From positions 1 to 31,056 of IMG/VR virus record IMGVR_UViG_3300025119_000015: a stretch of 31,056 nt of DNA, one strand, 5' to 3'. The translations under genes were made by a program, and so were the position numbers. A model generated the notes under the pieces. The model saw only the letters and a program-made list of their open reading frames with translations. It did no database searches and was not told the origin of the DNA. Positions 822 to 29,864 of this stretch are shown here, in pieces; the stretch's first letter is position 1; every line of letters starts with the position of its first letter. This stretch comes from a virus (lineage: Duplodnaviria; Caudoviricetes).

Positions 822-913
822 CTGAACAGGTTGAAGCTGAAGCAGCTCTTAATGAATTAAGAACTGCCGATTTTCCTAACGACTCTAAATTTGTCTCCTG
901 GGGTAAGCGATAA
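710..913 (+). CDS. -1 frameshift extension of the tail assembly chaperone (gpGT-like)
   Basis: T-TTT-TTA at 710-716; the -1 frame (TTALTSVSGV...SKFVSWGKR) is open to TAA 911-913, which overlaps the tape measure ATG (TAATG). Confidence 0.75.
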   Translation, partial: FFTTALTSVSGVTVDIGTLFRLPSVYIRGHLRQAARLAEQVEAEAALNELRTADFPNDSKFVSWGKR

Positions 914-3900
914 TGGTACAACCTGTCGGCTCTGAAGCAGATCAAATCCGAGTTGATCTTGTAGTTCTTGCTAAGGCTAATCTTGAAGCTGTTAGAGCTG
1001 TTGAGGAACGCCTTGGAGCACTCAGTATTCAAGCACGAAATACCCAAGGCCACTTTGAGCAGTTTTCTAAAATACAGGAAGGATTCAGAGTTCAGTCTAA
1101 GAAAACTGTTGATGCGCTTAAGGCTTCGGCTGCTGGATTCGGTAATCTATTTCCCTCTGGTATAATTACCAGCGCAGGACAAGTTAATCAAGCCTTTGTC
1201 AGCTTAGGAAAAAACCTTGAGAATTATGCTACAGAAGCCATAAACACAGAAATGATTGGTGCAAAGCTGGGGGGCAGCTTTCTGGCAACTGCACAGTATA
1301 TGCAGATCTTGGGTAATGCTAGTGCAGTTACATCTGGACGGATTCAAGGAATAATAGCTGATCTTCAACAGCTTGCAAGTACAGCGGGTGCTGCTGGCAC
1401 AGCGGTCATTAATCAATTGGTTAATGCACTTGAACAGCTTGCTTTAAAACAAGAACTTGTTACTATAGCAGCACAACAGAGAGTTAGTCCGGCCCTGACC
1501 CAAATGCAGAAAGCGGGTCAGGGTCTTCTTCTTAGCTTCTCGCTTGTCCAGGGTATGTCCGGCAATCTCTCATCAGCTCTCTTTGGACTTGGCTTTGCTG
1601 TTATCTTCACAGGCATGAAGTTCCTGAATCTAACAACTGCCATTGTCGCTGTTAGCGCCGCTCTTGGCTCTGTTGCTATAGAGAAACTAACAAAGAAACA
1701 GAGCGAAGGTGCTGAAATAACAGCAAGAGTTACTAAAGAAACTCAGAAACTTAGGGATACCTGGATAGAGCTTCAAGGCGAAACTAAACTTACACAAAAA
1801 GCCTATGCTGATTTAGCAGAAGAGGGCGTTAACCTGATAGCAGTATTTGCTGAGCAAAGAAGACTGGTAGAAGAGGGAGGCGGAAAACCAAGTTTTCTTG
1901 AGAGTCTTGGAGAAACAGCAGAAACTGCAGGTAGAGGATTACTCTTTTTCGCCACTGGGGCAGGAACTGCTCAGGTAGCATGGGAGAATTATACTAGATC
2001 TGTTGAAGAAGGTGAAGGCCCACTTGCTGGACTTAGAGCCGAAAAGAAGGGAATTGAAGCACTTAAACTAGCTCAAGACTTAGAGGAAATAGACCAGGAA
2101 AATACGGCTGCCTTCCGTGCGCTTGCGAACTCGACTCGAAACGAGCTTATGAAGGTCTATCAGGAATTCAAAGCTGAAGAAGTCTCAATAAGGATAGAGA
2201 CAAAATTCACAGAAGGTATCGAGGCAGATAGAGAAAAAGTATCAAACCATTACGACCTATTACGCTCTAACATCGAGAAGCACTACGATAACTTAAACGA
2301 GACAATAAAAGAAGGACAAGCAAGTGCAACTGACTCAAGACAGAGAGCACTTCAGAATGAAACAGATGCCATAAATGAAGCTCTAAAAAACCAGACAAAG
2401 ATTATCCGAAAGGGCCTCAAAGACCAGCTTGAGATATACAGCGAAGCGCTTGAAGTAGAAACAGATAATCTAAAAACCATCTATCAGGAGCAGGTAGAAG
2501 TAGTCAATGATGCTCGTGATGCACAGATAGAGGTCATCTCAGATGGCCTTAAAGACGAGCTAGAAGTTATTCAAGATGGCCTGAACGCAAAGACAGATGC
2601 TATACGCGAAGCTCTTGACGACGAAATAGATACTATCAGAGATGCCCTGAATGACAGACTTGAAGTTATTAGGGACGCAGCCCAAGACGAAATAGATGCT
2701 GAGAGAGAAAAGATAGATGCTATCAAAAAGCAGGAGCGAGAACTAGAGAGTGCTCTCAGCGCCTTACAGCAACGTCGAGCTGCGATTAGAAATGAAATCT
2801 TAGGCGCAGAAGCTCAATTAGCAGCCCTAGAACGTGAAGCAACTCTTACTGGCGTTGGTGCTACAGAAGAGCAAGCTATTGTCAAGGCTCGTATAGCAGG
2901 CTTAAAAGCCGAAGATGTAGCTACTCAAAATACTATAAAGCAACGTGAAGCTGCCCGTGACACTTTACTTGGTCAAGTAGATACGATAGAAGCCATAATA
3001 GAAGCTATTGAAGAAGCTAGAGATGATGAGATTGAAGCTGCTCGTGATACTGCTGAAGAGACAATTGAAGCTGCTCAGAAGGCAGCTGATGAGAGAATAG
3101 ACATCGAGAAGGACGCTGCGGATGACTTAAAGGAAACTGCTCAAGATGTTGCTGATAATAAGAAGAAGCTGGAGCAAGAAGCAGCCGAAACCGCAATAAC
3201 AGAAATAAATAAGACAAGGGATACAGCTATACAGGCAGCCCAAACACGCTCAGAGGCAGAACAAGAACGTGCTCGTGAGGCTGCTGATGTTGCAATAGAA
3301 GAAGCTAACAGAGCTTCTACAAATGCTCAACGGGCAGCTCAAGACAGAGCTGATGCAGATATTAGAGGATATGAACGTGCTGCTGCTAAAGCAATAGAGC
3401 TAAATGATAGCGTTGAAGCAAAACGAACTGAAACTATGAATTTGCTTGAGCAAACACAGCAGAGAATAATTGATGGCGTTGTAGAAGAGCACGAAAAGCG
3501 AAAGCGGCTTCATGAGTGGCAGCAGAATATCGGCCTCCCGTTGGTTAAAAAGTTCTTCCAGTACCAGATAGCGTTTGGAGCAATCCAGGGAATTGGACAG
3601 GAAGGAATCGATCCTGTGCTTCGTGCTGGTGCTAGAAAAGCACAATACAAGGCATTTCTAGAAAGCTTATTCCCTGGTATGGATATTACTGAATTTCTGG
3701 AAGGCTACCAATTGGGTACTCGTCGTGTTCCAGGAGCAATGGGTCAGCCACAATTAGCAGTCGTTCACGGCGGAGAAGCAATTACTCCACCAGGACTATT
3801 GCCTCCAGCGTCAGCAGGTTTCAGAGACTTTAACTTGTCGCTTTATCTCAATAACGAAGCAGATTTCAGACGGTTAGAGAAAACTCTTGAAGGTGTATTT

Positions 3901-3960
3901 GGGAAGAGTGTAAGTATAGCTATACGTTCTGGTCTTGGGAACCGGAAAGGTCTACGTTAA
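913..3960 (+). CDS. Tail tape measure protein
   Basis: 1015 aa, Ala/Glu-rich helical protein with roughly 11-residue periodic repeats, a hydrophobic segment near aa 200-255 and the C-terminal 'YQLGT..VPG...AVVHGGEAITP' motif common in tape measure proteins; synteny. Confidence 0.9.
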   Translation: MVQPVGSEADQIRVDLVVLAKANLEAVRAVEERLGALSIQARNTQGHFEQFSKIQEGFRVQSKKTVDALKASAAGFGNLFPSGIITSAGQVNQAFVSLGKNLENYATEAINTEMIGAKLGGSFLATAQYMQILGNASAVTSGRIQGIIADLQQLASTAGAAGTAVINQLVNALEQLALKQELVTIAAQQRVSPALTQMQKAGQGLLLSFSLVQGMSGNLSSALFGLGFAVIFTGMKFLNLTTAIVAVSAALGSVAIEKLTKKQSEGAEITARVTKETQKLRDTWIELQGETKLTQKAYADLAEEGVNLIAVFAEQRRLVEEGGGKPSFLESLGETAETAGRGLLFFATGAGTAQVAWENYTRSVEEGEGPLAGLRAEKKGIEALKLAQDLEEIDQENTAAFRALANSTRNELMKVYQEFKAEEVSIRIETKFTEGIEADREKVSNHYDLLRSNIEKHYDNLNETIKEGQASATDSRQRALQNETDAINEALKNQTKIIRKGLKDQLEIYSEALEVETDNLKTIYQEQVEVVNDARDAQIEVISDGLKDELEVIQDGLNAKTDAIREALDDEIDTIRDALNDRLEVIRDAAQDEIDAEREKIDAIKKQERELESALSALQQRRAAIRNEILGAEAQLAALEREATLTGVGATEEQAIVKARIAGLKAEDVATQNTIKQREAARDTLLGQVDTIEAIIEAIEEARDDEIEAARDTAEETIEAAQKAADERIDIEKDAADDLKETAQDVADNKKKLEQEAAETAITEINKTRDTAIQAAQTRSEAEQERAREAADVAIEEANRASTNAQRAAQDRADADIRGYERAAAKAIELNDSVEAKRTETMNLLEQTQQRIIDGVVEEHEKRKRLHEWQQNIGLPLVKKFFQYQIAFGAIQGIGQEGIDPVLRAGARKAQYKAFLESLFPGMDITEFLEGYQLGTRRVPGAMGQPQLAVVHGGEAITPPGLLPPASAGFRDFNLSLYLNNEADFRRLEKTLEGVFGKSVSIAIRSGLGNRKGLR

Positions 3961-6873
3961 ATGGCTACTGTATTAAAACTAAGTAATGGAATAGAAACCA
4001 TAGATTTTATCTCAGGCTCATCAGACTATAGATTACTAGCTGATGACGCTCTTCAAATATCTATGCCAGAATCGAAACGTGTCTTTGGTGGTGATCCTCT
4101 GCTCCGTAAAGGAGAAGGCTCTCGTCTTATTGAAAGACAATATGAAAATAGAGAAATCTCTATTGATTTTAAGATAACAGCAACAGATCATAACTCATGG
4201 GTTGAAGATATAAGACGCATAGACAGAGTACTTAACGATGCTAAAGAATATAGTAAGAAGGGATATGGGAATAAGGTAACTCTTCGATTTCAGCTAGAAT
4301 CTGCATCCACAGATGTATACTTTGATATTCTGGATGGCGATTTGTCTTTACCTAAGATAGCATCTGCGCCATTAAGAAGAGAATTTAAGACAATTGAGAA
4401 CAGTTTAACCCTTATAGCTAAACCATTAGCTCGTGCTACATCTATTATTCAACTAGATAATTGGATTCTCAATGGAGATTTCTGTTATAATCCTGGTGAA
4501 TACGGCAGAGACTCTGTTGGTTACTATACGTTTGGGGTATCAGGTAACAGATTTGAGAGAGCTAATACAATTAATCTACAACCTCCAGCTGCGACAGTGC
4601 CTGAACTATTTGTAGGGGCATGGATATATCTTACAAGTACACCAACTAATCCTGGAGATGAGTTTATTATAGCTTCTGCTGGTAATAATCCAAGTGATGC
4701 TACTCCTGCTAATAGACCAGCCTGGGTATTAGCCATTAGAAAAATCAGTGATGGATTACCTAGACAGCTAGTGTTTAAGATTTACACAGAGGCGGGTATT
4801 CTAAAGGAGTATGTTGAGCTAGACTCCCGTATGACGATTCCTCTGAATACTAATATAAATGTGGCTGGCTCTATCTCGAAGACTTTGTTTGGAGCAGGTT
4901 TAACTATTCCATTCACTGTACCAGCAACGATAGTTGGTACAGGAACATACAGGAGAATTGAAGTCTTTATTAATGGCAAAAGTGGTACAAGCGTTCTTAA
5001 TACAGCTATAGCATCTATTCGTCAATCAACAGGTAAATTTACTGTTGGTGCCTATAGTGATGATTCGTCTCGTTTTGTTGGTCGGATAGCTGGACTTGCT
5101 GTAGTTATAGGTACAATAGAAGGATACAGACAATTAGCGTTATTCTATTATGGAATGACATCTTTAGCTGGTCAGACTACCACACCAAATAGGTGGTTCT
5201 GGGATCTTCAGTCTTCAGAATGGGGCGCAAGTTGGAATTTTAACGATGGTCTTATTTTTGATGGTGGGCCACGAGCATTAAACCTCACAATTGTAGGAAC
5301 TCCAACGTTTCTTGCGAACTCTGTACCACCTAGAGGTTGGACTATAGGATCAGGTCTTACACTTTCCAGGGCCATTTCTCTAGTATCCAAATATGGGTTT
5401 CTAAGTTACCTCTTCCTTGAGACTGTTAGTGGAGCTAATAAATATATAGAGCAGACATGGAGCATTCCAGCAAATAGACGTAAGTCAACTCAGAAGTGGA
5501 CTGCAGTGTTTTGGCTTCGAGCATATACCTCTACTCTTAGGAGTATAGACATAATATATGGTGCAAAAGCTGCGTTATCTAGTGAAAATGTGGTAGCTGT
5601 GCAAGACACTTGGACTCAATACATTGTGACATTTGCTGGTGAAGGAGGAACAAGTACAGGCAAAATACGTTTTGAGAAACTTACAGGTGAAGGTTCTATA
5701 GTATACATTGACGGTGTAGAAATTTTAGAAGGTGAACCGTTCGGTGTTTTCGCGACAATTACACCAACGTCAGGAAAACCATATATAGATTCCAGATTCT
5801 GTGCTATGCCAGATAGCTCTCTCAATCTTGACTATTCAGTAAAGCGAAATACTATTGCTGTTAGAGATTTGCCAGGAGATCAACCGGCAGCCATAAGACT
5901 TTTTATTCAGAATAAGGAACCTGCATATGGTATGGGGCCAATTAGAGTAGGCCAAGTCTCCAAAGCAGAACCGTCTAAGTTTATATCCTGTTATCCCTCA
6001 TCACTGTTACTACCTCAAAATAATGTTCGTCCTCTCGTTCTTCAGACATCAGGACAGGTTCCTGGTGAATCCAGAGTATGTATGATTAGAGACCTCGATG
6101 ATTTTCAGGGCAGTGGTTTTGAGGAGTTGGTATATGGAATCATGGGAGGACTGTTTCCGTTTCCAGATCAACAGCGTGGAGCATTCAAAGTCATAGCAGA
6201 TGTGTTTGTAGAGGGAGATACATTCGAAGGCGACTTATTCTTCAGGGCGAGTAGTTTATTCCCATTGACTCGTGATCCATCTAATCTAAGCAATATCCTC
6301 AGACGGTTTGTTAAAGTAGATGCTGGTTTGTTATATTGGTTGCCATTATATACTCTGAGGTTTAGAGAGCTACCAGGATCTGCAACTAAGGGAGAGATTA
6401 GTAGTCATAGAACAATAATGGAATCAGAATCAACTACAAGGCTTGCATTAGAAGCATATCCTTCAGTGGTCACTCCAGCTACTGAAGGTATAGGTATAAG
6501 TGTTATTCATCTTCTACCTGTCGAGGATGGATATTACGGATTCTTTCCCGACATCAATAGAAAAAACTATTTAGAGCCTAATAAGATTCTGGTTATAGAT
6601 TCTATAAATGAGGAGACAAGTTATATAGTAAATGATTCAGCATATGCAGTGCTGAATGCTGAAGCTGTACTGGATGAAACTTTAACCCTGAATATAGAAG
6701 CAGCTTCATCTATAAATACTATAGGTAACAGTTTTCGATTAGAGCCTCAGGAAAAGAATCTGTTTACCTTTCTTATTGAACAGAGCCAGGATGGTTTTCC
6801 TCTTGGTAATTCTATGTCTGGTATGCAATTTGAAGCTTGGATAGAGTACGAAGCGCGGTATCTTTATGTCTAA
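3961..6873 (+). CDS. Distal tail-like protein with inserted LamG/concanavalin-like and carbohydrate-binding-like domains
   Basis: Follows the tape measure gene. Dit-like N-terminus ('RQYENREISIDF'), LamG-like 'IEVFING...FTVGAY...FVGRIAGL', CBM-like 'NWILNGDF...VYIDGVEI'. Confidence 0.6.
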   Translation: MATVLKLSNGIETIDFISGSSDYRLLADDALQISMPESKRVFGGDPLLRKGEGSRLIERQYENREISIDFKITATDHNSWVEDIRRIDRVLNDAKEYSKKGYGNKVTLRFQLESASTDVYFDILDGDLSLPKIASAPLRREFKTIENSLTLIAKPLARATSIIQLDNWILNGDFCYNPGEYGRDSVGYYTFGVSGNRFERANTINLQPPAATVPELFVGAWIYLTSTPTNPGDEFIIASAGNNPSDATPANRPAWVLAIRKISDGLPRQLVFKIYTEAGILKEYVELDSRMTIPLNTNINVAGSISKTLFGAGLTIPFTVPATIVGTGTYRRIEVFINGKSGTSVLNTAIASIRQSTGKFTVGAYSDDSSRFVGRIAGLAVVIGTIEGYRQLALFYYGMTSLAGQTTTPNRWFWDLQSSEWGASWNFNDGLIFDGGPRALNLTIVGTPTFLANSVPPRGWTIGSGLTLSRAISLVSKYGFLSYLFLETVSGANKYIEQTWSIPANRRKSTQKWTAVFWLRAYTSTLRSIDIIYGAKAALSSENVVAVQDTWTQYIVTFAGEGGTSTGKIRFEKLTGEGSIVYIDGVEILEGEPFGVFATITPTSGKPYIDSRFCAMPDSSLNLDYSVKRNTIAVRDLPGDQPAAIRLFIQNKEPAYGMGPIRVGQVSKAEPSKFISCYPSSLLLPQNNVRPLVLQTSGQVPGESRVCMIRDLDDFQGSGFEELVYGIMGGLFPFPDQQRGAFKVIADVFVEGDTFEGDLFFRASSLFPLTRDPSNLSNILRRFVKVDAGLLYWLPLYTLRFRELPGSATKGEISSHRTIMESESTTRLALEAYPSVVTPATEGIGISVIHLLPVEDGYYGFFPDINRKNYLEPNKILVIDSINEETSYIVNDSAYAVLNAEAVLDETLTLNIEAASSINTIGNSFRLEPQEKNLFTFLIEQSQDGFPLGNSMSGMQFEAWIEYEARYLYV

Positions 6874-8518
6874 GCTATGTGTACAGGTGGCTCCGACTAT
6901 CAAAAATCAGTCTGATGTTCCAGTTTATGGAAATGAATCTTTAGCTGGCAGGATTCAAGACCTAGAATTTGGGACTAGTGTCCCTGGTGGATTCCTAAAT
7001 TGTGGATTTAAGATTCCTATGTCTTCTTCTGAGGCTTTTTATTGGTACTCAACCAGAATAGGACATCATGTTCTCATAACAGACAAAGGGCAAACTGTAT
7101 GGGAGGGAAGGATAGACAATATAGAACTTGGAAGTTTCAGGGTTACTATATCAGCCTTAGGTTATTGGGTTAGTCTTACAGATCAGATACTCTATCAACG
7201 ATGGGCAGATACTGGTCTTAGCTCATGGAAAGAATTCAGCTCAGTAGAATTTGTCGGGTTCTCGAATGCAAAGCCAGAAGCTTTCGAAAATAATAATCCA
7301 GGTAGCCTAGTCACGGCATTAAGAAATGGTGAGACTTATAATTCTGGTAATCCTAGCTCCGGTTATGTGTATGTATTACCTACACCTGTCTTTGTGGCTT
7401 CTTTTCCTATTGCGCCAAATACTGTACAGTATATTAAGTTTGGTCTCGTTATTACTAATGCAGATTCATCCGATTTGCGCGTTAGGATCTTCACAGCTAG
7501 CAATCCATATTCAGGGAGCTGGACACAAAAAGCTTCCTACAAGATTGCCGATAATGGGAACAAGGAAATTGCAGTCGGTGGTGGCTCTGAAGACATAAAA
7601 GCTGTAGCGTTTATTGTAGATGATGATAAGGTTCATACTTATGCTGGTGCCACTGGAGATGCCAGAGTAGTTATATCTGATATACAGACTTGGGCTGATA
7701 TAGACCCTATGAATATAAATCGTCTTACAGCCCATAGATTTATTCTGGATAACCTTCTTGGTAAACCGTCCCTAGGTTTGTCATCAACAATGCCACAAAT
7801 CTCTCCTGATACTCTGTACGTAAAAGACCCAGGGCTAGATATAATGCCTTTACTGGTTGAAGGTAAGACTGTACAAGATGCTATACTAGAGCTAAGTTCA
7901 TATGGCGATGACCAGAGTCCTCCTAATGAATATTTTCCAGCTATATGGGATTCGCGTAGATTCTTCTTTGAGCCAAAAGAAAAATTAATGGTGAGATGGT
8001 TGATAAGATTGAAGGAATTCAGTGAAGATGGTTTAAATCTTATGCAGAGTCTCGAAAATTACTGGAGCAAGGTTTATGTTAGATATACAGATATAAAAGA
8101 GAGACTTGCTTTTACAACAGTAAAGGAAGATATTGTCTTTCAGTCTCCATCTATAGACCGAACTAATATAGTTGGTGCTGATGTAAGACAGCTTGCTGTA
8201 GCGAATGTTCTAAGAGATGCCTTTTTTGAAGACTTTAGAAAACCACAGCAGCGAACAGAAGTTTCTATTACAGGGAGAATACGCAATCGTCACAATGTAC
8301 CTGAGCCATTATGGATGGTACGGGCAGGGGACTTGCTGTTCGTAGAAGATCTTTTTTCGTTCTCAGGTGGTACTTCATTAGACCCTTTGCGCTTATTCAG
8401 CATAAGAGAAACGTCGTATAATTATGAAAATAATGAACTCACTCTTACACCAGATTGGCCTGCTAATAGGCTGGATATCCTAGTGTCTCGGTTATCAGCT
8501 CTAGGCAAGGAGTTCTAA
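6866..8518 (+). CDS. Tail tip / baseplate hub-like protein
   Basis: 'VWEGRID...ISALGYW' and C-terminal 'VRAGDLL...IRETSYNYENNELTLT' patterns typical of siphovirus hub proteins; translationally coupled to the upstream gene. Confidence 0.6.
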   Translation: MSKLCVQVAPTIKNQSDVPVYGNESLAGRIQDLEFGTSVPGGFLNCGFKIPMSSSEAFYWYSTRIGHHVLITDKGQTVWEGRIDNIELGSFRVTISALGYWVSLTDQILYQRWADTGLSSWKEFSSVEFVGFSNAKPEAFENNNPGSLVTALRNGETYNSGNPSSGYVYVLPTPVFVASFPIAPNTVQYIKFGLVITNADSSDLRVRIFTASNPYSGSWTQKASYKIADNGNKEIAVGGGSEDIKAVAFIVDDDKVHTYAGATGDARVVISDIQTWADIDPMNINRLTAHRFILDNLLGKPSLGLSSTMPQISPDTLYVKDPGLDIMPLLVEGKTVQDAILELSSYGDDQSPPNEYFPAIWDSRRFFFEPKEKLMVRWLIRLKEFSEDGLNLMQSLENYWSKVYVRYTDIKERLAFTTVKEDIVFQSPSIDRTNIVGADVRQLAVANVLRDAFFEDFRKPQQRTEVSITGRIRNRHNVPEPLWMVRAGDLLFVEDLFSFSGGTSLDPLRLFSIRETSYNYENNELTLTPDWPANRLDILVSRLSALGKEF

Positions 8519-13045: not shown

Positions 13046-13249
13046 ATGCAGACCATAAACCGAAATGGATATTTACAGTCTATTGGGCTTGCCCCTGTGG
13101 TGAAATCAGGAGAGCATCAAAGACATTCTATGCAGAAGATTTGTAGACACTGCCGCCAAGTTATTGAGCCTATATATCTTAGAGTGATAAGTACTGGCTA
13201 TATTATAACAATACGTGACTACTGTACAGGCTGCAAACGAAGAGGCTAA
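13046..13249 (+). CDS. Small zinc-ribbon hypothetical protein
   Basis: CRHC...CTGC; SD-like AAGGA upstream. Confidence 0.5.
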   Translation: MQTINRNGYLQSIGLAPVVKSGEHQRHSMQKICRHCRQVIEPIYLRVISTGYIITIRDYCTGCKRRG

Positions 13250-13250
13250 A

Positions 13251-16200
13251 ATGCAATTAACTGACGTTGGGCAAGAACTTTTTGAGAGACGATACAGATG
13301 GCATAATGAAGACTCTGACGGTATGTTTACTAGAGTCGCAGAACATATCGCGTTAGCTGAAAACAAGGAGCAACGGAGCGAATACAAAGACAAATTCTTT
13401 GAATTAATGTCATCGCTCCGGTTCTTACCAAACTCCCCCACACTCTTTAATGCTGGGACAGGTCAAGGGCTACTTAGTGCTTGCTTTACTTTTTATGTAG
13501 AAGACAGTCTAGTATCTATTATGGAGTGTCATAGACTTGCTGGATTAGTGATGAAATACGGCGGTGGTGTAGGCTATGGTTTTAGTCGTGTGAGACCAGC
13601 AGGAGCAGAGATTAAAACTGTTCAGGGCAAAGCTTGTGGGCCTGTGAATTTACTGCCTTATTATAATGGTATAGCAGAACTAATAACTCAAGGTGGAAGA
13701 CGGTCTGGTGCTCAGATAGGCATTCTGTCTGTAGAGCATCCAGATATAAGAGATTTCATACATTTCAAGGACGAGAACCCTGATAGCTTACAAACATTCA
13801 ATATATCAGTTGCTATCAATGATGGGTTTATGGAACGATATCAGAATGGCGACATTGAGGCTAGGCAGATATTAAAAGAGATTTCAGAATCAGCTTGGCG
13901 AACAGGCGATCCTGGTGTTTGGTTTATAGATACTGTAAACGCAGCAAATTCTACACCGTGGCTTGGGAGGCTAGAGTCCTGTAATCCCTGTCTTAGTCCA
14001 GATACGCTTATAGCTACTAAAGATGGGCTTATTCCAATTAAGGATATTCCTCAAGCCTGGAAATCTGGATATAAGCCGATTTATAAAATAACTACTTTGG
14101 AGGGATACGAAGTTTTTGCAACGGCAGACCATCAATTCTATACACAAGAAGAAGGTTGGACTTCTGTTAAACAACTAGAAGATAAAAGAATCCGTATATG
14201 TAACACCTCAGCTTTTGGTATAGATGGAAATAGAGACATAGGGTTAGTGCTTGGATGGCTTTCTGGAGATGGGCATATAAGTGAGAATCAGAAGTCAATT
14301 CTTTGTTTTGATAAAATAGAGAAATCAGATGCCTGCACGGTAGTTTTAAATGCCTATCAAAATATACTTGGTTTCTCATCACAGCATACTTGGGGTAGAC
14401 AAACTAGAGTAGCTTCTATGAAACTGTCAAGATTATCTACATCTTGGCAACCTGATGAAAAGTTTCCAGAACGAATGCTTATCGCTAATGAGGAATGTCA
14501 GTCAGCTTATCTTTCAGCTTTGTTCAGTGCAGACGGAACTGTTACAGGAACCCAGCAAAAAGGAATAAGTGTTCGGTTATCAAGCTCTAAATTGCATCTC
14601 TTAAGACGTGTTCAGTTATTACTCCGTAATTTTAATATCTATTCTAAGATATATCAGAACAGACGCTTTGCTGGGTATCGAGATCTGCCAGATCAAAAAG
14701 GTGGAACTAAAGAATATTATTGCGAAGCACAGCATGAATTAGTTATCAGTAATACATCTCTGAGGCAGTTTGCTAATGAAATAGGATTTATAGTTCATGC
14801 TAAGCAAGAGAGATTAATTCATCTTCTATCACAATATAAGAGGGCAATAAATCTAGATAGCGAATGGGCAAGAGTTAAAACCATAGAGTATTTCTGTGAT
14901 GGGGATGTATGGGATATCTCTTCTATTACAGAGTCTATTTCAGCCAATGGTCTTTTAGCTCATAATTGCGGCGAAGTTCCACTATATCATGCAGAGGCTT
15001 GCAATCTTGGAAGCTTGAACCTGGGAAAATATTTTGATACTGATACTCGTTCTATATTATGGGATAAACTAAAGTCAGATATAAGATTGGCTGCTCGATT
15101 TCTGGATGATGTTATAGATGTAAACAGCTTCCCTGATCCTATAATCACGGCAGCAGTTAGCAAAACACGTAAGATAGGTTTAGGTGTTATGGGATGGGCA
15201 GATGTGCTTGCCTTATCTGATATTCCATATGACTCGGATACTGCTATTAATCTAGCTGGCGAAGTTATGGAGTTTATTCAAAAGACTGCTGATAGAGCCA
15301 GTTACGAATTAGGTCAGGAACGAGGTATAGCACCAGCATTTGACTGTGATGAGGCTCCCTCTGTTCTTGGACTCGCAACCAGAAATGTTACTCGTACCTG
15401 TATAGCTCCAACAGGTTCTATTTCGCAACTGGCCGGATGTTCTTCTGGTATAGAGCCTCATTATGAGCTGGAGTATAAGCGCACCATGTTCGACAAAGGT
15501 GTACCGATAGAGCTTCATGTCAGAGAACCTGTTCTGGACATTCTCCAAGAGCTAGGCTTAAACCTACCCAAAACGGCTCTTGAAATTAGTCCTGAATGGC
15601 ACATAAAACATCAAGCTGCATTCCAACGATATACTAATCTAGCTGTCTCCAAGACGATAAATCTACCCGAAACTGCCACGGTTAATGACATCGAAACGAG
15701 TTTTGTTAAGATGTGGGAATCGGGATGTAAGGGTGGTACTATATATAGAGACAAGAGCCGTGAAACACAAGTTCTAGGCGAAAACCGCAGGAAAGTTAAT
15801 GGCCGTAAGAGACTTCCAGATGAAAGGAAGTCTATTACCCATAAGTTTAAAGTAGGAGATCAGGAAGGATACCTTACAGTAGGTCTGTATGATGACGGCA
15901 AACCTGGAGAATTGTTCGTTAAGATAGCAAAAGAAGGTTCAACTGTTGCAGGCGTCTATGATGCTATAGGTATTCAGACTAGTCTCTTATTACAGTATGG
16001 TGTATCGCTGGAGAGTATAGCAGGAAAACTTTCTGGAATGCGGTTTGAACCTTCAGGTCTTACAAGCAACCCTGAGATACCTTTTGCATTTTCTATCCCT
16101 GATTATATTTATAGATGGCTAATGTCTAAATTTGGTAGTAATATTAACAGTCCTGTCATTACCGGACTATTTTGTCCTGACTGTACCAGTCAACTCTTAG

Positions 16201-16259
16201 CACAGGAAGGATGCTTAAAGTGTGAAAACAAAGCGTGTGGCTTTAACAGATGTGGATAA
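13251..16259 (+). CDS. nrdJ: Class II (adenosylcobalamin-dependent) ribonucleotide reductase with intein
   Basis: 'FLPNSPTLFNAG', 'LSACF', 'QGGRRSGA', 'NPC..GE.PL...ACNLGSLNL', 'IAPTGSIS...CSSGIEP', C-terminal TSCPD-like domain and Zn ribbon. The ATG at 13251 (SD GAGG) is preferred over GTG 13215. Confidence 0.93.
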   Translation: MQLTDVGQELFERRYRWHNEDSDGMFTRVAEHIALAENKEQRSEYKDKFFELMSSLRFLPNSPTLFNAGTGQGLLSACFTFYVEDSLVSIMECHRLAGLVMKYGGGVGYGFSRVRPAGAEIKTVQGKACGPVNLLPYYNGIAELITQGGRRSGAQIGILSVEHPDIRDFIHFKDENPDSLQTFNISVAINDGFMERYQNGDIEARQILKEISESAWRTGDPGVWFIDTVNAANSTPWLGRLESCNPCLSPDTLIATKDGLIPIKDIPQAWKSGYKPIYKITTLEGYEVFATADHQFYTQEEGWTSVKQLEDKRIRICNTSAFGIDGNRDIGLVLGWLSGDGHISENQKSILCFDKIEKSDACTVVLNAYQNILGFSSQHTWGRQTRVASMKLSRLSTSWQPDEKFPERMLIANEECQSAYLSALFSADGTVTGTQQKGISVRLSSSKLHLLRRVQLLLRNFNIYSKIYQNRRFAGYRDLPDQKGGTKEYYCEAQHELVISNTSLRQFANEIGFIVHAKQERLIHLLSQYKRAINLDSEWARVKTIEYFCDGDVWDISSITESISANGLLAHNCGEVPLYHAEACNLGSLNLGKYFDTDTRSILWDKLKSDIRLAARFLDDVIDVNSFPDPIITAAVSKTRKIGLGVMGWADVLALSDIPYDSDTAINLAGEVMEFIQKTADRASYELGQERGIAPAFDCDEAPSVLGLATRNVTRTCIAPTGSISQLAGCSSGIEPHYELEYKRTMFDKGVPIELHVREPVLDILQELGLNLPKTALEISPEWHIKHQAAFQRYTNLAVSKTINLPETATVNDIETSFVKMWESGCKGGTIYRDKSRETQVLGENRRKVNGRKRLPDERKSITHKFKVGDQEGYLTVGLYDDGKPGELFVKIAKEGSTVAGVYDAIGIQTSLLLQYGVSLESIAGKLSGMRFEPSGLTSNPEIPFAFSIPDYIYRWLMSKFGSNINSPVITGLFCPDCTSQLLAQEGCLKCENKACGFNRCG
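13989..14966 (+). mobile_element. Intein (326 aa) with LAGLIDADG homing endonuclease
   Basis: Starts CLSPDTLI, block B 'ATADHQF', LAGLIDADG blocks 'VLGWLSGDG' and 'YLSALFSADG', ends 'ANGLLAHN' followed by Cys; removal restores NPCGE. Confidence 0.95.
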
Positions 16260-17586: not shown

Positions 17587-17587
17587 T

Positions 17588-17716
17588 TTGTACAGGATAT
17601 GCAAGTGTTTGATTGGACTAATCCTGATAAGAGTAATCACTATTTGGGAACACGACATCAGGCAAAATCCTACACAGGCGTTGATTAATGTTTTAAGAGG
17701 GGAGGTGATGTTATGA
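17588..17716 (+). pseudogene. Remnant of a Vsr/DUF559-like endonuclease
   Basis: 42-codon TTG-start ORF ending 'RVITIWEHDIRQNP...', resembling the C-terminal IWE motif of Vsr/DUF559 nucleases; catalytic core absent. Confidence 0.45.
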
Positions 17717-18931
17717 ATCATACGGCGGGAGATTGGCTAAATCCAGATGGTCGAATTAAGCTTCTTATAGGCGATTGTACTGTAAGGATGTCAGAGATTC
17801 CATCTGATTCGATAGACTCTGTTATTACTGACCCGCCGTATGGTTGAACATGGTCTAGCGTTTATGGGTAAGTCCTGGGACGATATAAGCAAGGTAAAGC
17901 TCTGGCATCATAAATGGGCAGTTGAGGCGTTTAGGATTCTGAAGCCAGGAGCGCATATACTAAGTTGTGGTGGAACACGTACTTATCACCGTATGGCCTC
18001 CGCGCTTGAAGATATAGGTTTTGAGATAAGGGATTGTGTACTTTGGTTATACGGCAGCGGTTTCCCAAAATCACAGAATATCGCTAAAGCCATAGATAAA
18101 AAACTTGGTGTCAAGTCTGAAGTTATTGGTGTTCAGAGTCTACCTGACCACCGAGGCGATAATTACAAGCAAGGTCATAGGGACTATAATATTATAGAAC
18201 ATGAAACAACTAGAGCTACAAGTGATAAGGCTAAAGAATGGGAAGGGTGGGGCACGGCCCTTAAACCTGCAGTAGAGCCAATATGTCTCGCCCGTAAGCC
18301 TCTGAAAGAAAACACTGTAGCCGGAAATGTTATGATGTATGGTACAGGTGGTCTGAATATAGACGAAAGCAGAATAGGTGAAGAAGAGCGTACTTATAAA
18401 GGCAGTGGTGTCAGTCAACAAAGATATGATAATAGTCGTGCTGGTTTAACTGATGGACGTGGCAAAGATTTAGAGTTTAATGTCTCTGGCCGCTATCCTA
18501 GCAATGTTATTCTAGACGAAGAAGCTGCTCAGGCACTTGATGCACAAACAGGTTTCACGAAATCGCGTAAAGATATACTGACCAGTAAACCTGGACAGAT
18601 ATATGGTGGAGGTGATGGCCTTCCAAGCACTACAGGTTTGTATGGATTTAATGACTCTGGTGGCGCTTCGCGCTTCTTTTATACAGCTAAAGCCAGTGTC
18701 TCTGAGAGGCGAGGGAGCCAGCATCCTACAATTAAGCCGCTGGCTCTTATGAAATACTTAGTTCGTCTAATAACACCTCCAGGTGGTACTGTCCTTGACC
18801 CTTTTGCTGGTTCAGGTACAACGCTTGAAGCAGCTTATCAATTAGGCTTCTCTGCCATCGGGATAGAAATGGATGAGGCTAATCTTGAGACTATTAAGAA
18901 GAGACATGAGCAGATGACGTTAGGGATTTAG
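17713..18931 (+). CDS. N6-adenine/N4-cytosine DNA methyltransferase interrupted by a 10-nt gap after DPPYG
   Basis: SD GGAGGTG and ATG 17713 give MNHT...GDC...DSVITDPPYG-stop (17845-47). The +1 frame continues GLAFMGKSWD...YGSGFPKS...HPTIKP...DPFAGSGTT. Removing 10 nt gives one 402-aa enzyme. Confidence 0.88.
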
Positions 18932-19626: not shown

Positions 19627-19950
19627 ATGTACACATTAGATAGTTATACAGAGTTTACTCACTGGATAAAATACTGGGCATGGTGGACTTGCTCAGATTG
19701 CTGGTGGCGAGCAGAGAGAAAGGATGAGAAATATGAGATAGTTCTTCACTATAAAGATCTAAATCGATCTAATTATACAGCTAATAACCTGGTTGTTATC
19801 TGCCGTGATTGCCGTGACATAAGATATCACAAAGAGCTATCTGTTAAGCGGCTGAAGATAGTAAAAGAGCGATATAAAAAGGTTCTTAGAAAGGTACAAC
19901 TACAACGAGATGAATCAGGTTGGCCTGTAAAAGTAGGGAGTACATTATGA
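19627..19950 (+). CDS. Degenerate HNH-fold protein
   Basis: CxxC...'HYKDLNRSN...NNLVVICRDCR'; the usual HH and final His positions are substituted. Confidence 0.65.
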   Translation: MYTLDSYTEFTHWIKYWAWWTCSDCWWRAERKDEKYEIVLHYKDLNRSNYTANNLVVICRDCRDIRYHKELSVKRLKIVKERYKKVLRKVQLQRDESGWPVKVGSTL

Positions 19951-22801: not shown

Positions 22802-23062
22802 ATGGCAAATAAAGTCTATTGTTCTGGTCGATGGTGGTATAACTATAGTCTTGCTTCCTGGTGCTATCGGCAAGCAGGATACTATGATCCTAGTATAGCT
22901 TGTGATGCAGCAATACAGGTCAGTGATGATGCTGTGCGTCAATTAATTACAGCACTTGATGAAGCTGGATGGATAGTTCCTAGACTGGATGAACGGCTGC
23001 GGACAGAAGATCTAAAGATTACCCATAGGCTGTTGGACGTGATTGAGAAGAGTATAAAGTGA
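22802..23062 (+). CDS. Hypothetical protein
   Basis: SD GGGGAGG; GTGA coupling to the next gene. Confidence 0.7.
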   Translation: MANKVYCSGRWWYNYSLASWCYRQAGYYDPSIACDAAIQVSDDAVRQLITALDEAGWIVPRLDERLRTEDLKITHRLLDVIEKSIK

Positions 23063-24015
23063 TGCTAGACAGTACAGAGAGAACAGTCTCACATAAGCCG
23101 CCTGAGTTTACAGGATTCTGGAGTTCGTCTCAGCTTGGATGTTGGCGACAGATGTATCTTATCGCTAAAGGTATAGAGGGTGATTGGTACGATTCTCCAG
23201 TTCTGAAAGAGGGCCGATTACATGAAGATGACTTAATAGCTCAGATGGCTGTAAAAGGTGTGGTAGTTACAGACCGCTTTGAAGAGCTTAAACATCCCAT
23301 ATTGCCATTAAAAGGTCATCCTGATGGTAGATTCACTGTGACTCAGGATATGAATTTAGGTATTCCAGAAGGCAGATATATCTTAGAGGCGAAGAGCATG
23401 GATAGAAGCTTCTACTATAAAGCTGTCAAAGACTTTAAGACTAACTTTCCACATCTGTATCAGCAGCTACAATCGTATTCTCTGATGTCAGAAGGACATG
23501 AAAGCGTCTTTGTTCCTATTAAGAATAGAGCAACAGGTGAGATATATGAGTACGTCTTTGAACCTGATCCTGATACTTGGGATGAGATAGAAAAAGGTAT
23601 GGCGAATCTGCAGGTTGCTATTCATACACCTGGATTTGATTATAAGACATTAGTATGTGCTACTCCAGATTCTATAAAAGCTAAATATTGTCCTTATCGT
23701 GACAGAGAGCTATGTGAATCACAGACTAATATTCCAGAAGTCACAGAACAAGAATTAGTTTTTGCAATTCAACAATATGAAGAAGGTAAAACGGTTGAGA
23801 GTCATGGCAGTAAGCTTAAAGCGGATGCTAGAAAGATAGCTGTTGCGTATATGATGAAGCATAATCTTGTAACGATGACTGTCGCGGGTAAATTAGTGTC
23901 TATTATACCATCGAGTCGCAGAGTTTGCGATTTTGATAAACTCAGAGACTTAGACTCTAAAATCTACGATCAAGTTGTAGATGATAGTGAAAGCGACCGC
24001 TTCACAATAAAATAG
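23059..24015 (+). CDS. PD-(D/E)XK exonuclease (Cas4/YqaJ-like)
   Basis: 'LGCWRQ', 'EGRLHE', 'GHPDG', 'ILEAKS', 'QLQSY', C-terminal Cys cluster. Confidence 0.85.
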   Translation: MMLDSTERTVSHKPPEFTGFWSSSQLGCWRQMYLIAKGIEGDWYDSPVLKEGRLHEDDLIAQMAVKGVVVTDRFEELKHPILPLKGHPDGRFTVTQDMNLGIPEGRYILEAKSMDRSFYYKAVKDFKTNFPHLYQQLQSYSLMSEGHESVFVPIKNRATGEIYEYVFEPDPDTWDEIEKGMANLQVAIHTPGFDYKTLVCATPDSIKAKYCPYRDRELCESQTNIPEVTEQELVFAIQQYEEGKTVESHGSKLKADARKIAVAYMMKHNLVTMTVAGKLVSIIPSSRRVCDFDKLRDLDSKIYDQVVDDSESDRFTIK

Positions 24016-24912: not shown

Positions 24913-25263
24913 ATGAAAAGTGGGAATATAGCAAGTAAACCCTGCTTGGTCTGTGGCCGAGACCTTTATCGGCTTTGGAAATCGAAGCGCGTCGGGTCTA
25001 TATGTCGTCGGTGCTATGAGAAACAGAAACAGTCTGGATCTATAATGTTTGAGTGTCGCTCCCGTTGCATGATTTGTGGAAGGCAGACACCTCACGAAGT
25101 TTGTCATCGGCACTCTCTTGCAATTAATGGTGATAGGTACTGGCCAAGTAGCGCTAACTTTAGTCGTAACCATCAGCGGATGTATTTTCGCAACTTTGAT
25201 CGTGAGCCAGAGGAATGCAGTGACCTGATATGTTTACAGAGACTAGAAGAAGAGAAAGAATGA
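24913..25263 (+). CDS. Cys-rich zinc-finger hypothetical protein
   Basis: CLVC, CRRC, CMIC, CHRH motifs; coupled to the next gene. Confidence 0.6.
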   Translation: MKSGNIASKPCLVCGRDLYRLWKSKRVGSICRRCYEKQKQSGSIMFECRSRCMICGRQTPHEVCHRHSLAINGDRYWPSSANFSRNHQRMYFRNFDREPEECSDLICLQRLEEEKE

Positions 25264-25564
25264 TGCTGTCAACGAACGACCTACGCAAAGCCTGTGAGAT
25301 TCCTAACGATGCCTCTCTAGGCCAATTAGCCCGTCAGCAACTACCGTTACTGGCTGACCACATTGAGACCCTGTACCGCGCCATCGCTGCTTCGCGCGCG
25401 TTGGTAGCGGAGAAGGACAAGGCGCTGGATTGTCTATACACCGAGGCCTTTCTTCCTTTCATGAGAAGTCTCTCGCTGAGAGGGCAGCTATTACACAGGC
25501 GAAGAAGGTCCTTGCCCTCACCGAAGAGGCGATGCTAGAGCGCCTGGAGCGCAAGGAGGCATGA
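25260..25564 (+). CDS. Hypothetical protein, apparently frameshifted
   Basis: Frame 0 stops at 25538. The -1 frame encodes 'VLALTEEAMLERLERKEA', which matches the paralog at 26089 and ends in an ATGA overlap with the next gene. Confidence 0.6.
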
Positions 25565-25881
25565 TGCCACACCACGACCCCCTTGAATTCCCTGACGAAT
25601 CCACGCCAGTTAGTCGTTTACGAAGGGAAGTAGAGGTTAACTCAGGCTACAATGAGCCAACTGCGCCTGCTGGTGAGAAGCTGTTCGCCGCTGACATCTT
25701 AGCGGTGTGCAGCAGTGTCGAAAGGCTGGAGGCCGAGAACAAGCGGCTGCGGGCAGCGCTAGGGCAAATAGGTTGGGGCGGAGAGTCCACGATTACAGTT
25801 CTGCCTGGGCCTAACGGTGTATTGAGCCGTGAGGATATGCAGGAGATCGCTCGCGCTGTCCTGCGGCGCAAGGAGGCGTGA
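25561..25881 (+). CDS. Hypothetical protein
   Basis: SD AAGGAGG; coiled coil 'VERLEAENKRLRAAL'. Confidence 0.7.
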   Translation: MMPHHDPLEFPDESTPVSRLRREVEVNSGYNEPTAPAGEKLFAADILAVCSSVERLEAENKRLRAALGQIGWGGESTITVLPGPNGVLSREDMQEIARAVLRRKEA

Positions 25882-26078
25882 TGATACTTAGAGTAAGCTG
25901 TATTGTCTCTGCGGTAGTAGCCGCTGTAATGCTGCTCGTGGCTAGCACCCTGGCCCTTATAGCGAAAGATGCTGGAACGACATCACTCACAGCGGAAATC
26001 ATCGCAGTTTGGGCTACACTCCCAGGAACGTTTAGTGTGGTTATGGCCGTTTACCTTGGAGGTAGATGGGCATCATAA
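25878..26078 (+). CDS. Small two-TM membrane protein
   Basis: Two hydrophobic helices; SD AAGGAGG. Confidence 0.65.
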   Translation: MMILRVSCIVSAVVAAVMLLVASTLALIAKDAGTTSLTAEIIAVWATLPGTFSVVMAVYLGGRWAS

Positions 26079-26088
26079 AGGAGGCGTG

Positions 26089-26493
26089 ATGGACGGCTGG
26101 ATGACGCTACTGAAGGACGAGGAGAAACATTGGGTAGCCCTCTCTGAAAGTGGGCTACAGAGCGAAGGTGCCATTTGTGAGGAGCCAGAGGACTGTATTC
26201 ACTGTCATTCCGAAGCTGTGTTGGCACTTGCTTGCTCCCTAGCTGCCCTGCGGGCGCTGGTGGCAGAGCAACGGAGCTACATACAAACGAGGGCTGAGAT
26301 ACACAAGACAGGAGAAGTGGTGATGAGTGCTATGTGGAGGCAGGCAAAATGCCAAGGATGTCAAGCCGAAGCTGTTCTTGCTCTCACCGAAGAGAAGATG
26401 CAGAAGTACTTGGAGGACTGTGCTTGCAGTGGCCCGCCGATGCAGCCCTGCTGCCCTCGATGCAGGTATCCATATACAGACGAGGAGGCGTGA
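26089..26493 (+). CDS. Cys-rich hypothetical protein, paralog of the 25260 gene
   Basis: SD AAGGAGG; shares 'A.RALVAE' and 'VLALTEE.M...LE'. Confidence 0.65.
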   Translation: MDGWMTLLKDEEKHWVALSESGLQSEGAICEEPEDCIHCHSEAVLALACSLAALRALVAEQRSYIQTRAEIHKTGEVVMSAMWRQAKCQGCQAEAVLALTEEKMQKYLEDCACSGPPMQPCCPRCRYPYTDEEA

Positions 26494-26765
26494 TGGCTAC
26501 TTGTGTAGTTAACCTTCGCTATGAGTCGTGTAACGTCTACATTGGTAGACCGTCAAAATGGGGAAACCCCTTCCAGATTGGTCATGGGCGAACACGCCAG
26601 CAGGCCATCGAACAGTACCGCGAGTGGATTCTTCAACAGCCGGAGTTACTAGCAGCACTACCTGAATTGAGGGATAGACGTCTGGGATGCTACTGTGCTC
26701 CGTTACTCTGTCATGGCGATGTTCTATTGGAACTGATAGATGGTCTGGAGCGAAAGGGAGCATGA
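26493..26765 (+). CDS. DUF4326-family protein
   Basis: 'VYIGRPSKWGNPF.IG...R...I..YREW......L..L....LGCYCAP..CHGDVL'. Confidence 0.9.
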   Translation: MATCVVNLRYESCNVYIGRPSKWGNPFQIGHGRTRQQAIEQYREWILQQPELLAALPELRDRRLGCYCAPLLCHGDVLLELIDGLERKGA

Positions 26766-26772
26766 TAGAGTC

Positions 26773-26992
26773 ATGAATCGCACGTCGATAGAATGGACGG
26801 ACTTCTCCTCAAATCCCATCTACGCCGTAGATCGCGAGACCGGCAAACGCGGCTGGTTCTGCGAGCGAGTATCGCCAGGCTGCAGACGTGCCGTTCTTCT
26901 TCAAATCTTGGTCAGATCCGCGCCCCACGAGCGGCGGGCGGCTGCTGGATGGGAGAACATGGGATGAGATGCCGGAGTGCAAGGAGCCGTGA
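26773..26992 (+). pseudogene. Internally deleted phage Gp37/Gp68 (DUF5131) gene
   Basis: N-terminus 'TSIEWTD...NP...C..VSPGC' joined out of frame to the C-terminus 'QAADVPFFFKSW...GRLLDGRTWDEMP'. Confidence 0.85.
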
Positions 26993-27027
26993 TTCCTATT
27001 AGACATCATGTTGAAATATGAGATGTT

Positions 27028-27916: not shown

Positions 27917-28597
27917 ATGGACATTATGATTTCGCCTTCAGAACCAAGAGATATAAAAGAGGATTTTGGTCAGTATGGTATAGTTAATCCTAACTTAGCT
28001 GCAGATTATGGTTGGTATGCTGGAGGACGTTTTAGTCTAGTAGAACGTAAGCATATTCCTGGTGATTTCTTGGCTTCTAAATCAGATGGTCGTCTTCAAC
28101 GTGAGATGCAGGCTCTACTTGAGAACATCGAACAGGGTGGCAGAAGTTATCTTTTATTAGAAGGTCACTGGTCATGCGACCGAGAAAGTATGATTCTAAA
28201 TCCGCGTTCAACAGGCTGGAGCATAGACAAAGTATCAGAGATGATATCAACAATACAGGATATGGGAGTTAAGTTGTTACTAAGTCCTGATATGAAACAG
28301 ACAGCTCTAGTTTTAATATCTCAGGCACGGTGGGAGCTAAAAGATAATCATAAGAGTCTATCTGTTCGACCTGGGCCTGTAGAACCTTGGGGTCGTCCTA
28401 GTTATTCTACATATGTAGTGTGGTCTTATCAAGGTATTCCTGGTGTTGGTGTTGATATAGCTGAAGTACTATATGAGGCAGCGCCTACATGGGCGGACTT
28501 AGTTAAGATGTCGGAGCAAGATTTACAGGAACTGAAGCATTTTGGTAAGAAACGTAGTGAACGTGTTTATAAGTTTATTCATGAGGGAAAGCTGTAA
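27917..28597 (+). CDS. ERCC4/XPF-family structure-specific nuclease with HhH motifs
   Basis: 'ADY...VERK...DF..S..DGRL...M', 'LLLEG', 'GIPGVG', 'FGKKRSE'. Confidence 0.85.
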   Translation: MDIMISPSEPRDIKEDFGQYGIVNPNLAADYGWYAGGRFSLVERKHIPGDFLASKSDGRLQREMQALLENIEQGGRSYLLLEGHWSCDRESMILNPRSTGWSIDKVSEMISTIQDMGVKLLLSPDMKQTALVLISQARWELKDNHKSLSVRPGPVEPWGRPSYSTYVVWSYQGIPGVGVDIAEVLYEAAPTWADLVKMSEQDLQELKHFGKKRSERVYKFIHEGKL

Positions 28598-28824: not shown

Positions 28825-29143
28825 TTTTGACAGTATAGATAGAGCATATAGAGATAGTTCTGTTCCTGATGTACTTGCTAATACGCGAAAGGGCTACGAT
28901 TTACAGACCCACTATAACATAGCTGATCATAGATATGAATTCTATTATCGAGGTCACAAGTTCTGCATTGATGAAGTTGAAATTATGTGGGATAGATATC
29001 CCATGAATATATTAGCGGAGAGAATAAAGAAGATAATGACAGAGATAAACGGTAAAGAAGACTTTGGCTGGAAGCCAAAGGAGAGAAGTTTATCTCATAG
29101 TGAGATACTAAATCAATTAGAAAGGTACAGAAGTGTTACCTGA
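28793..29143 (+). CDS. Hypothetical protein
   Basis: Open frame between coupled genes; start uncertain (28775 or 28793). Confidence 0.55.
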   Translation: MARKSGGSDFSFDSIDRAYRDSSVPDVLANTRKGYDLQTHYNIADHRYEFYYRGHKFCIDEVEIMWDRYPMNILAERIKKIMTEINGKEDFGWKPKERSLSHSEILNQLERYRSVT

Positions 29144-29864
29144 GCCATATTTCCAGACTATGGATGGACGTGTTAAGCTGTATCATGGCGATAGTGCTGA
29201 GTTAATGCTAGAGCTAGAAGATCATAGTATTCAAGCTATCCTAACCGATCCTCCTTATGGTATAGAATGGAAGAGTAATTGGCTTATGAAGCATGAACAG
29301 AAGGAAGTTCTGAAGGGTGATAAAGACTTAACCTGGATGGGTGACTTTCTTATAGACTGTGAACGACTTCTGAGACCAAAAGGTTCTATGTATATTATGA
29401 CTAGATGGGACAAGTTGGGGTTTCTTACTGGCCTTATCCGTAATCTAACAGAGCTAAATGTCCGTAACTGTATCGTATGGGATAGAATTATACATGGCCT
29501 TGGTGATCTGAAAAGCTTTGCGCCTGTATATGACTTGATAGTGTATGTTACTCAAAATAAGCCGAAGCTTTTATCAGAGTATAGATTCACAAATCTTTGG
29601 AGCATTAACAGAGAGCTGGATAGGATTACGGGACATCCTACTTCTAAGCCTGTAGCCTTGTTCGAGAGAATGCTAGTATGTTCAACTCAGCCAGGAGATA
29701 TGATATTGGACCCGTTTGCTGGTTCTGGTGCTAGTCTAGTAGCAGCAAACAAACTCAACAGACAAGCAATCGGTTTTGAGATCGATGAACATTTCTGCGA
29801 GATGGCTGCAAAAAGATTACAGCAACTACCTATGTTTATGGAGCAGGCGGAGATGCGATTATGA
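29133..29864 (+). CDS. N6-adenine/N4-cytosine DNA methyltransferase (intact)
   Basis: 'LYHGDS', 'TDPPYG', 'HPTSKP', 'LDPFAGSG', 'IGFEID'. Confidence 0.93.
   Translation: MLPEPYFQTMDGRVKLYHGDSAELMLELEDHSIQAILTDPPYGIEWKSNWLMKHEQKEVLKGDKDLTWMGDFLIDCERLLRPKGSMYIMTRWDKLGFLTGLIRNLTELNVRNCIVWDRIIHGLGDLKSFAPVYDLIVYVTQNKPKLLSEYRFTNLWSINRELDRITGHPTSKPVALFERMLVCSTQPGDMILDPFAGSGASLVAANKLNRQAIGFEIDEHFCEMAAKRLQQLPMFMEQAEMRL

Follow-up and report, generated by a model that had tools for sequence, protein, structure and literature searches.

A short stop-led gap after the DPPY motif of phage DNA methyltransferases, probably crossed by ribosomal hopping over a proposed homing-nuclease scar

Here, we describe a phage DNA methyltransferase gene whose reading frame is interrupted directly 3' of the catalytic DPPY motif by a stop codon plus a four-base spacer, and which is probably expressed by a ribosomal hop over the scar of a homing nuclease, a reading to which we give a probability of about 0.68. 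The gene resides in a stretch of 31,056 nucleotides (hereafter the window), which is a phage genome fragment that also encodes a head protein, a primase-helicase, a ribonucleotide reductase with an intein and a GH25 endolysin. To our knowledge, only a handful of genes are known to use natural programmed bypassing, namely T4 gene 60 and its kin, the Hau3 terminase and yeast mitochondrial byps. If the reading is correct, the more than 100 short natural variants of the junction, which span presence and absence of a hairpin, all frames and graded landing mismatches, would constitute a ready mutational series for the minimum hop signal and its evolution. Homing nucleases would further have a third way, besides introns and inteins, to break their target while the host gene survives, and gapped methyltransferase genes would be mis-annotated as fragments.

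The gene belongs to the phage beta-class N6/N4 DNA methyltransferases, as motif IV precedes motif I and PF01555 is matched. CcrM (6pbd) and RsrI (1eg2) share the PF01555 domain and the motif order, from DPPY over the target region to FxGxG, but unlike the window gene their genes are continuous. All parts of the gene lie on the + strand. A strong Shine-Dalgarno sequence (GGGGAGGTGAT, 17697..17712) precedes the 5' open reading frame (ORF; 17713-17847), which encodes 44 amino acids, ends in DPPYG and then meets the stop; its 44 codons (17713..17844) match PHROG 67 (E 4.7e-9) and are probably a replacement that was brought in by the cassette. The junction reads GAC CCG CCG TAT GGT (17830-44), TGA (17845-47), ACAT, GGT (17852-54) and CTA GCG TTT ATG, with the first GGT (17842..17844) as the predicted take-off codon, the TGA and the spacer ACAT at 17845..17851, and the second GGT (17852..17854), the first Gly-like triplet 3' of take-off, as the predicted landing codon and presumably the host gene's own Gly. 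The 3' piece (17855..18931; 358 codons; PF01555, E 1.5e-28) carries the target-recognition region and AdoMet motif I and ends normally. It is part of an ORF at 17840-18931, in the +1 frame relative to the 5' ORF, which is open as far as motif I (DPFAGSG) and starts at an ATG (17840..17842) that is made by TAT GGT, has no Shine-Dalgarno sequence and could allow a restart. The close kin of the window methyltransferase are continuous genes, and in the alignment to three of them (L002-L004, 66-75% identity) the window has exactly 10 extra bases, with the 5-base direct repeat ATGGT on both sides of the insert. The original prediction of a GGT-stop-4 nt-GGT junction after DPPYG, a strong Shine-Dalgarno sequence before the first half and a 402-residue enzyme (44 + 358 codons) on a 10-nt skip is thus borne out by the sequence and the alignment to kin.

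We propose that a homing-endonuclease cassette inserted into the 5' end of the methyltransferase gene, where it would have stranded the old 5' end upstream and supplied a new start-to-DPPYG copy with a stop. The new copy and the gap would have broken the nuclease's own target, and in the window phage the nuclease gene was likely deleted later. During translation, a fraction of the ribosomes would pause at the TGA after GGT, the peptidyl-tRNA-Gly would be released from this codon and re-pair at the GGT ten bases on, and the hop would yield one 402-residue methyltransferase. The junction sequence, its recurrence, the co-variation of the codons, the nucleases beside the genes of relatives, the remnant and the intactness of both halves are observed; we infer the hopping and its efficiency, the nuclease target, the immunity and the activity of the enzyme.

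Contigs of three runs (X1, X2 and X3), which are possibly the window's own source, span the junction with 0 differences at a depth of 9-21, and a 273-nt contig of depth 2.4 from a run of another study (X10), which has only 8 bases to the left of the take-off codon, covers 17834-18106 without change. Read support, which had been put forward as a check, was examined on contigs; separately assembled contigs retain the insert, and an assembly slip as the source of the 10-base gap is ruled out by contigs that carry it unchanged. The direct repeat that flanks the window insert would also suit removal of the gap from RNA or DNA, either as a tiny intron or by slippage between the ATGGT repeats. However, in most members of the family only 1-2 bases are common to the two sides of the gap and a shared 3' end is lacking, no gap-free contig occurred in 8 runs (contigs drop rare variants), and the GH25 endolysin suggests that the host is a bacterium, which argues against archaeal bulge-helix-bulge splicing. 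With regards to group I/II and archaeal introns, no Rfam family matched in the window, and gaps of 4-20 nt have no conserved splice ends. We therefore regard removal of the gap as highly improbable.

The junction is not confined to the window. In the viral records, a scan for a stop or TGG directly after DPPYG with Trp-Asp downstream returned 77 stretches: in 58 a methyltransferase continues within 25 nt, 14 have a Trp codon and 5 are unrelated. Gapped methyltransferases also made up 14 of the 21 stretches from genome contigs, six of the 14 coming from one metagenome-assembled genome (MAG), and at least 94 of the 119 stretches from metagenomes, for which 26 of 64 parts were scanned. Stretches without a recognisable resume motif (5/77 viral, 3/21 genome and 4/119 metagenome) and TGG matches (14 viral, 4 genome and 21 metagenome) were dropped before counting. 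Altogether, at least 137 distinct stop-led junctions were found after DPPY-G/E/D, 79 of which remain at <80% local protein identity. In these 79, the gaps are 4-20 nt long, mostly 8-10, frames 0, +1 and +2 are represented by 23, 16 and 40 junctions, and the stop codons, in a set that was chosen for stops, are TGA (45), TAG (25) and TAA (9). Two subfamilies can be told apart by the resume motif, xxFMG (FMG-type) and TTACKWD (TTAC-type). A random sample taken without regard to stops, with an estimated 6600 stretches in total, held 2 gapped sites among 132, so that the gapped form accounts for about 1% of the DPPYG-type phage methyltransferase genes; 1342 phage records match the 3' piece of the window gene.

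Several control scans bear on how specific the position is. When the stop was required one codon later, the scan returned 9 stretches and 0 new gapped genes; with the stop required after the motif I Gly, it returned 2 stretches, of which one is a plain nonsense change, in a control without a denominator. When no stop was required, 12 distinct FMG-type inserts that break the frame came up, of which 11 began with a stop right after Gly, one of the 11 being the window's own record. A stop-led gap after DPPYG is more than chance, and the family is large and site-specific. The homologue comparison that had been proposed thus came out in favour of the original prediction: short inserts that begin with a stop, vary in their interiors and lie between matching codons are found repeatedly at DPPYG, and the insert is not unique to one genome.

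The survey additionally brought up some unusual loci. A single Leptolyngbyaceae MAG has six gapped copies (L178, L179, L184, L193, L194 and L196), each on a contig of its own; at least two distinct junctions among them have a gap of 5 nt. In L219, about four related methyltransferase ORFs stand in tandem, of which one is gapped and the others are continuous. A DPPY-TGA junction in L006 was rejected as a gap: its methyltransferase (1998-2774) has TGA at several Gly positions, which points to genetic code 25, and the sequence looks like a phage with this code.

Evidence for the origin of the gap comes from the neighbouring genes. An HNH gene lies directly upstream of 31/49 gapped vs 0/32 continuous TTAC-type genes, an antisense NUMOD3/Vsr-like nuclease upstream of 11/42 gapped vs 0/69 continuous FMG-type genes and, after dereplication, an endonuclease gene directly upstream of 23/57 gapped vs 0/81 continuous genes; these counts leave out loci with <700 nt upstream, and the continuous set is unmatched for taxonomy. 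The nuclease profiles were run on all loci, and the Pfam scans of neighbours covered 141/141 ORFs of gapped and 118/216 ORFs of continuous loci. Stranded methyltransferase 5' ends lie farther upstream in 26/49 gapped vs 2/32 continuous TTAC-type loci; 14 of the 26 stop before Pro-Pro and two read as whole neighbouring genes. For the FMG-type, upstream 5' ends differ little (5/42 gapped vs 4/69 continuous). The window holds such a remnant at 17610..17627 (+ strand), encoding DWTNPD within a small ORF (17599-17688), where 17 of 18 bases equal the 5' end of the continuous gene of L004, a score reached by 0/1000 shuffles of 17587-17712; it probably marks the left edge of the cassette. The following spacer (17628..17696, + strand) occupies the site of the endonuclease gene in relatives, a gene that was presumably lost here: two purpose-built nuclease profiles, as well as Pfam and NCBIfam searches of two small ORFs, gave no match in it. 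The 5' piece of the window gene, compared over 37 codons, is 65-73% identical to kin in amino acids vs 86-92% among kin, and is thus farther from kin than these are from one another, while the 3' piece (73-82% to kin) is not. From left to right, the cassette would have consisted of the old 5' end, the nuclease, the new start-to-DPPYG copy, the stop, the spacer and the host's own Gly codon. An HNH-like gene at 19627-19950 (weak ZorE match, E 2e-4) was rejected as the cassette nuclease, because of its position 700 nt downstream and because the continuous gene in L003 has a homologous stretch beside it.

In a tree of the FMG subfamily (quick search; 114 columns; 123 rows, with rows <130 aa or without the GFPK anchor excluded), the window gene is nested among 8 continuous proteins with a support of 99, and the starred branches cannot be explained with fewer than 5 changes of gap state. 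By analogy with known elements, the gap would protect against the nuclease. The evidence on the gap favours a homing-endonuclease cassette as its source; the idea, put forward from the window alone, that it could serve to limit methyltransferase output is not supported.

Cassettes of this kind can also destroy their host gene, and the matched codons of the window could be only a duplication left by an insertion that killed its copy. Among cultured phages, the HNH profile matched only H101 (two records) and Vibrio phage VnaP, both with dead methylase remnants, and a search of plasmids with the same profile gave no match. In VnaP (L452:1295-2239), an old methylase 5' end and the HNH gene are followed by a C-terminal methylase scrap only, and the locus reads as a cassette of the gapped-methylase family whose host gene died. 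The window phage itself has a second whole N6/N4 methyltransferase (29133-29864), uninterrupted and with DPPYG, so that the gapped one may be dispensable; the gapped gene has no upstream hairpin, and a recent loss of its function would not yet be visible in dN/dS. Against a pseudogene, no nuclease is left and only 18 bases of the old 5' end persist, yet the Shine-Dalgarno sequence, both motifs and all of the 44 + 358 codons have stayed intact. The dN/dS of the 3' piece to kin is 0.07-0.16 vs 0.15-0.18 among kin, with dS near saturation. Across the family, TTAC-type downstream frames reach at least 190 aa in 49/50 gapped vs 29/31 continuous genes, median dN/dS is 0.40 and 0.49 for gapped pairs (11 and 6 pairs) vs 0.39 and 0.37 for continuous pairs (7 and 10 pairs), and the intact frames are accompanied by constraint on the landing codon. 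The two halves thus appear undecayed, as had been claimed, with dN/dS suggesting purifying selection on each, and the enzyme is presumably active. Of the earlier idea of an excision footprint, the duplication survives in that the Gly codons were probably duplicated via the cassette, but the family does not consist of pseudogenes, and we consider loss of function in the window gene unlikely.

An indication for hopping lies in the codons on the two sides of the gap, for which the landing codon was set by the register of the downstream motif and not by its letters. Landing tracks take-off, with Gly going to Gly, Glu to Glu and Asp to Asp; the non-Gly take-offs are GAG to GAG (twice) and GAT to GAC (once). 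The two codons agree at positions 1, 2 and 3 in 64, 78 and 34 of the 79 junctions, so that 15 mismatches at the first position stand against 1 at the second (p=5e-4, with related genes counted as independent). After GGY take-off, 14/14 landings with a first-base mismatch end in Y vs 33/50 of the others (p=0.013, kinship ignored), and G makes up 7/270 spacer bases vs 686/2370 directly after landing. The conserved middle base, the Y-ending rule and the G-poor spacers form the pattern that would be expected if a retained peptidyl-tRNA must re-pair. Duplication alone could match the codons, yet it would not explain any of these three features, and a constraint on the amino acid is disfavoured because it gives no reason for AGC, CGC and TGT to be preferred to GCN or GAY. 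Pairs of GGT take-off and GGA landing are common. Under standard wobble, no single tRNA reads both GGT and GGA. In the accessible part of a recent preprint (bioRxiv 2024.12.09.627546), landing at GGC by a GGA-reading tRNA is reported, which fits a loose third position. In 20/79 gaps, a triplet that could compete for landing comes earlier (the first two bases are shared in 4 cases, and 16 are of NGY type), so landing by a hop would be leaky.

The same junctions bear on two further routes to an active enzyme. Termination at TGA with a restart at ATG 17840 would give pieces of 44 and 363 aa that assemble into a split enzyme, and two-chain methyltransferases exist, e.g. M.AquI. The ATG fits the required frame, its overlap of 8 bases with the stop resembles that of the gene pair at 6866-6873, and TAT precedes the take-off in 7/16 +1-frame junctions vs 13/63 others. 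However, no Shine-Dalgarno sequence precedes 17840, the ATG arises automatically from TAT GGT, a start codon occurs within 7 codons of the landing site in only 23/79 junctions, the break would fall in the catalytic loop, and the conserved landing codon would be left unexplained. The split enzyme that had been listed as an alternative thus fails as the mechanism of the family and is conceivable for the window gene, for which we hold it to be quite unlikely. If ribosomes shifted by +1 at the shifty stop GGT-TGA, a 405-residue enzyme with three extra residues would result, and other members would need a -1 shift or readthrough. The +1 frame is open in the window gene and natural homologues tolerate loop insertions after DPPYG, but re-pairing from GGU to GUU brings a middle-base mismatch, no Shine-Dalgarno sequence lies just upstream, and stops block a single frameshift or readthrough in 4/79 junctions. 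Three frames would moreover require three mechanisms and the second Gly codon would be without reason, which makes frameshifting a distinctly improbable account.

A strong hairpin ends at the take-off codon in 22/49 gapped FMG-type vs 4/85 continuous genes, and none precedes it in 30 TTAC-type genes. In the window, no upstream hairpin was found (z +1.7; z near 0 in a second folding test), and folds around the junction are no better than those of shuffles. No enrichment was seen for a 3-bp hairpin in which Pro1 and Gly pair through their third bases (33/76 vs 47/113). A look-up of mini Shine-Dalgarno motifs found no GAG, GGA, AGG or GGG in the window gap; the distance from the end of the take-off GGT to the landing codon is 7 nt, and a spacing of 5-7 nt from take-off to landing occurs in 38/79 gaps. 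In many hairpin-bearing FMG-type loci (L022, L023, L053, L057, L231, L241 and L256), motif I is absent from the gapped ORF and a C-terminal methyltransferase half is encoded by a separate ORF upstream, so that these genes look split or permuted as well. The longer spacers of five loci (L060, L023, L287, L305 and L309) have ACCAC or ACCAT as their last bases before landing; these ends resemble host Pro-Tyr codons and may be eroded remains of them, and the ACAT of the window may be the same. With no nuclease, no hairpin and a perfect codon match, the window gene is a stripped-down member of the family.

Among known systems, the closest parallel is the T4 MobA element in the gene 39-gene 60 region (bioRxiv 10.1101/2022.08.31.505936, as far as its available text goes; see also Bonocora et al. 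2011, as cited in the part of PMC5009743 at hand). As in T4, there is a nuclease and a replacement of a host region encoded by the insert, a stop follows the take-off codon, the insert terminates at the landing codon, and take-off is at Gly or Asp. Like MobA-type elements as described there, the family has unrelated, interchangeable nucleases (HNH and Vsr-like) and loses the nuclease while the gap is kept. It differs, according to the same portions of these sources, in that the host is a methyltransferase and not a topoisomerase, that the gaps measure 4-20 nt vs 20-50 nt (10 in the window vs about 50 in T4), that no take-off stem-loop with a tetraloop lies in the gap (the window gap is too short for it), and that landings with a first-base mismatch and in-frame codon-stop-codon cases occur. 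The window shares with gene 60 the matched codons, the stop 3' of take-off, and the replacement 5' copy with a remnant; it lacks an adjacent nuclease, a 5' stem-loop, a take-off stem-loop, and the topoisomerase, MobA and 50-nt gap. The best reading is that the methyltransferase element would work like the T4 MobA/gene 60 element without being one.

The terminase of the Streptomyces phage Hau3, named in the original prediction as a case of a 10-nt hop, is a second point of comparison. The part of the paper available (PMC10732093) confirms a 10-nt hop between matched codons; it starts not at a stop but at a rare UUA sense codon. The short hop, the 10-nt gap and the matched codons are shared with the window, and the terminase host gene and the trigger, a rare UUA tied to host development, are not; at the methyltransferase junctions, a set chosen for stops, the codon is a stop and not UUA. 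According to the same text, the Hau3 hop worked in E. coli with the hungry codon changed to a stop, and its main text, as far as available, has no mention of methyltransferase or methylase. Synthetic stop hops in E. coli (PMC5009743, in the portion available) likewise have matched codons around a stop, with 9 nt giving one residue, a spacing that corresponds to the 6-nt gap of 6/79 junctions, but unlike the methyltransferase junctions they are laboratory constructs; natural in-frame stop hops are there described as unknown as of 2016. In a further case, a homing nuclease invades a phage methylase without splicing (PMC11855218, as far as its accessible part shows), but unlike in the window gene the frame is open through the insert (read-through), with neither a stop nor bypass. 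A full-text literature search, with few subscription journals and without the supplements that might list cases, returned no paper on methyltransferase bypass.

A broader reading, which we advance tentatively and at somewhat less than even odds, is that these junctions are widespread and repeatedly evolved minimal bypass elements, by which about 1% of DPPYG-type methyltransferases would be made via hops of 4-20 nt, in-frame stop hops included. Unrelated nucleases would have converged on the same solution, the DPPY-G peptide and a stop would suffice without RNA structure, and the take-off codon would perhaps act as its own mini Shine-Dalgarno sequence.

The remainder of the window holds further features. 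The ribonucleotide reductase (13215-16259) is of class II type, with a LAGLIDADG intein and a TSCPD domain. Three large ORFs at 913-8518 (1015, 970 and 550 aa) have no real Pfam or PHROG match and probably encode virion proteins. A Cas4-like exonuclease (23059-24015) and an ERCC4-type nuclease (27917-28597) are encoded as well. The region 25001-27000 has a G+C content of 53-54% vs 37-45% elsewhere, contains overlapping ORFs including one with DUF4326, and is possibly a recent acquisition.
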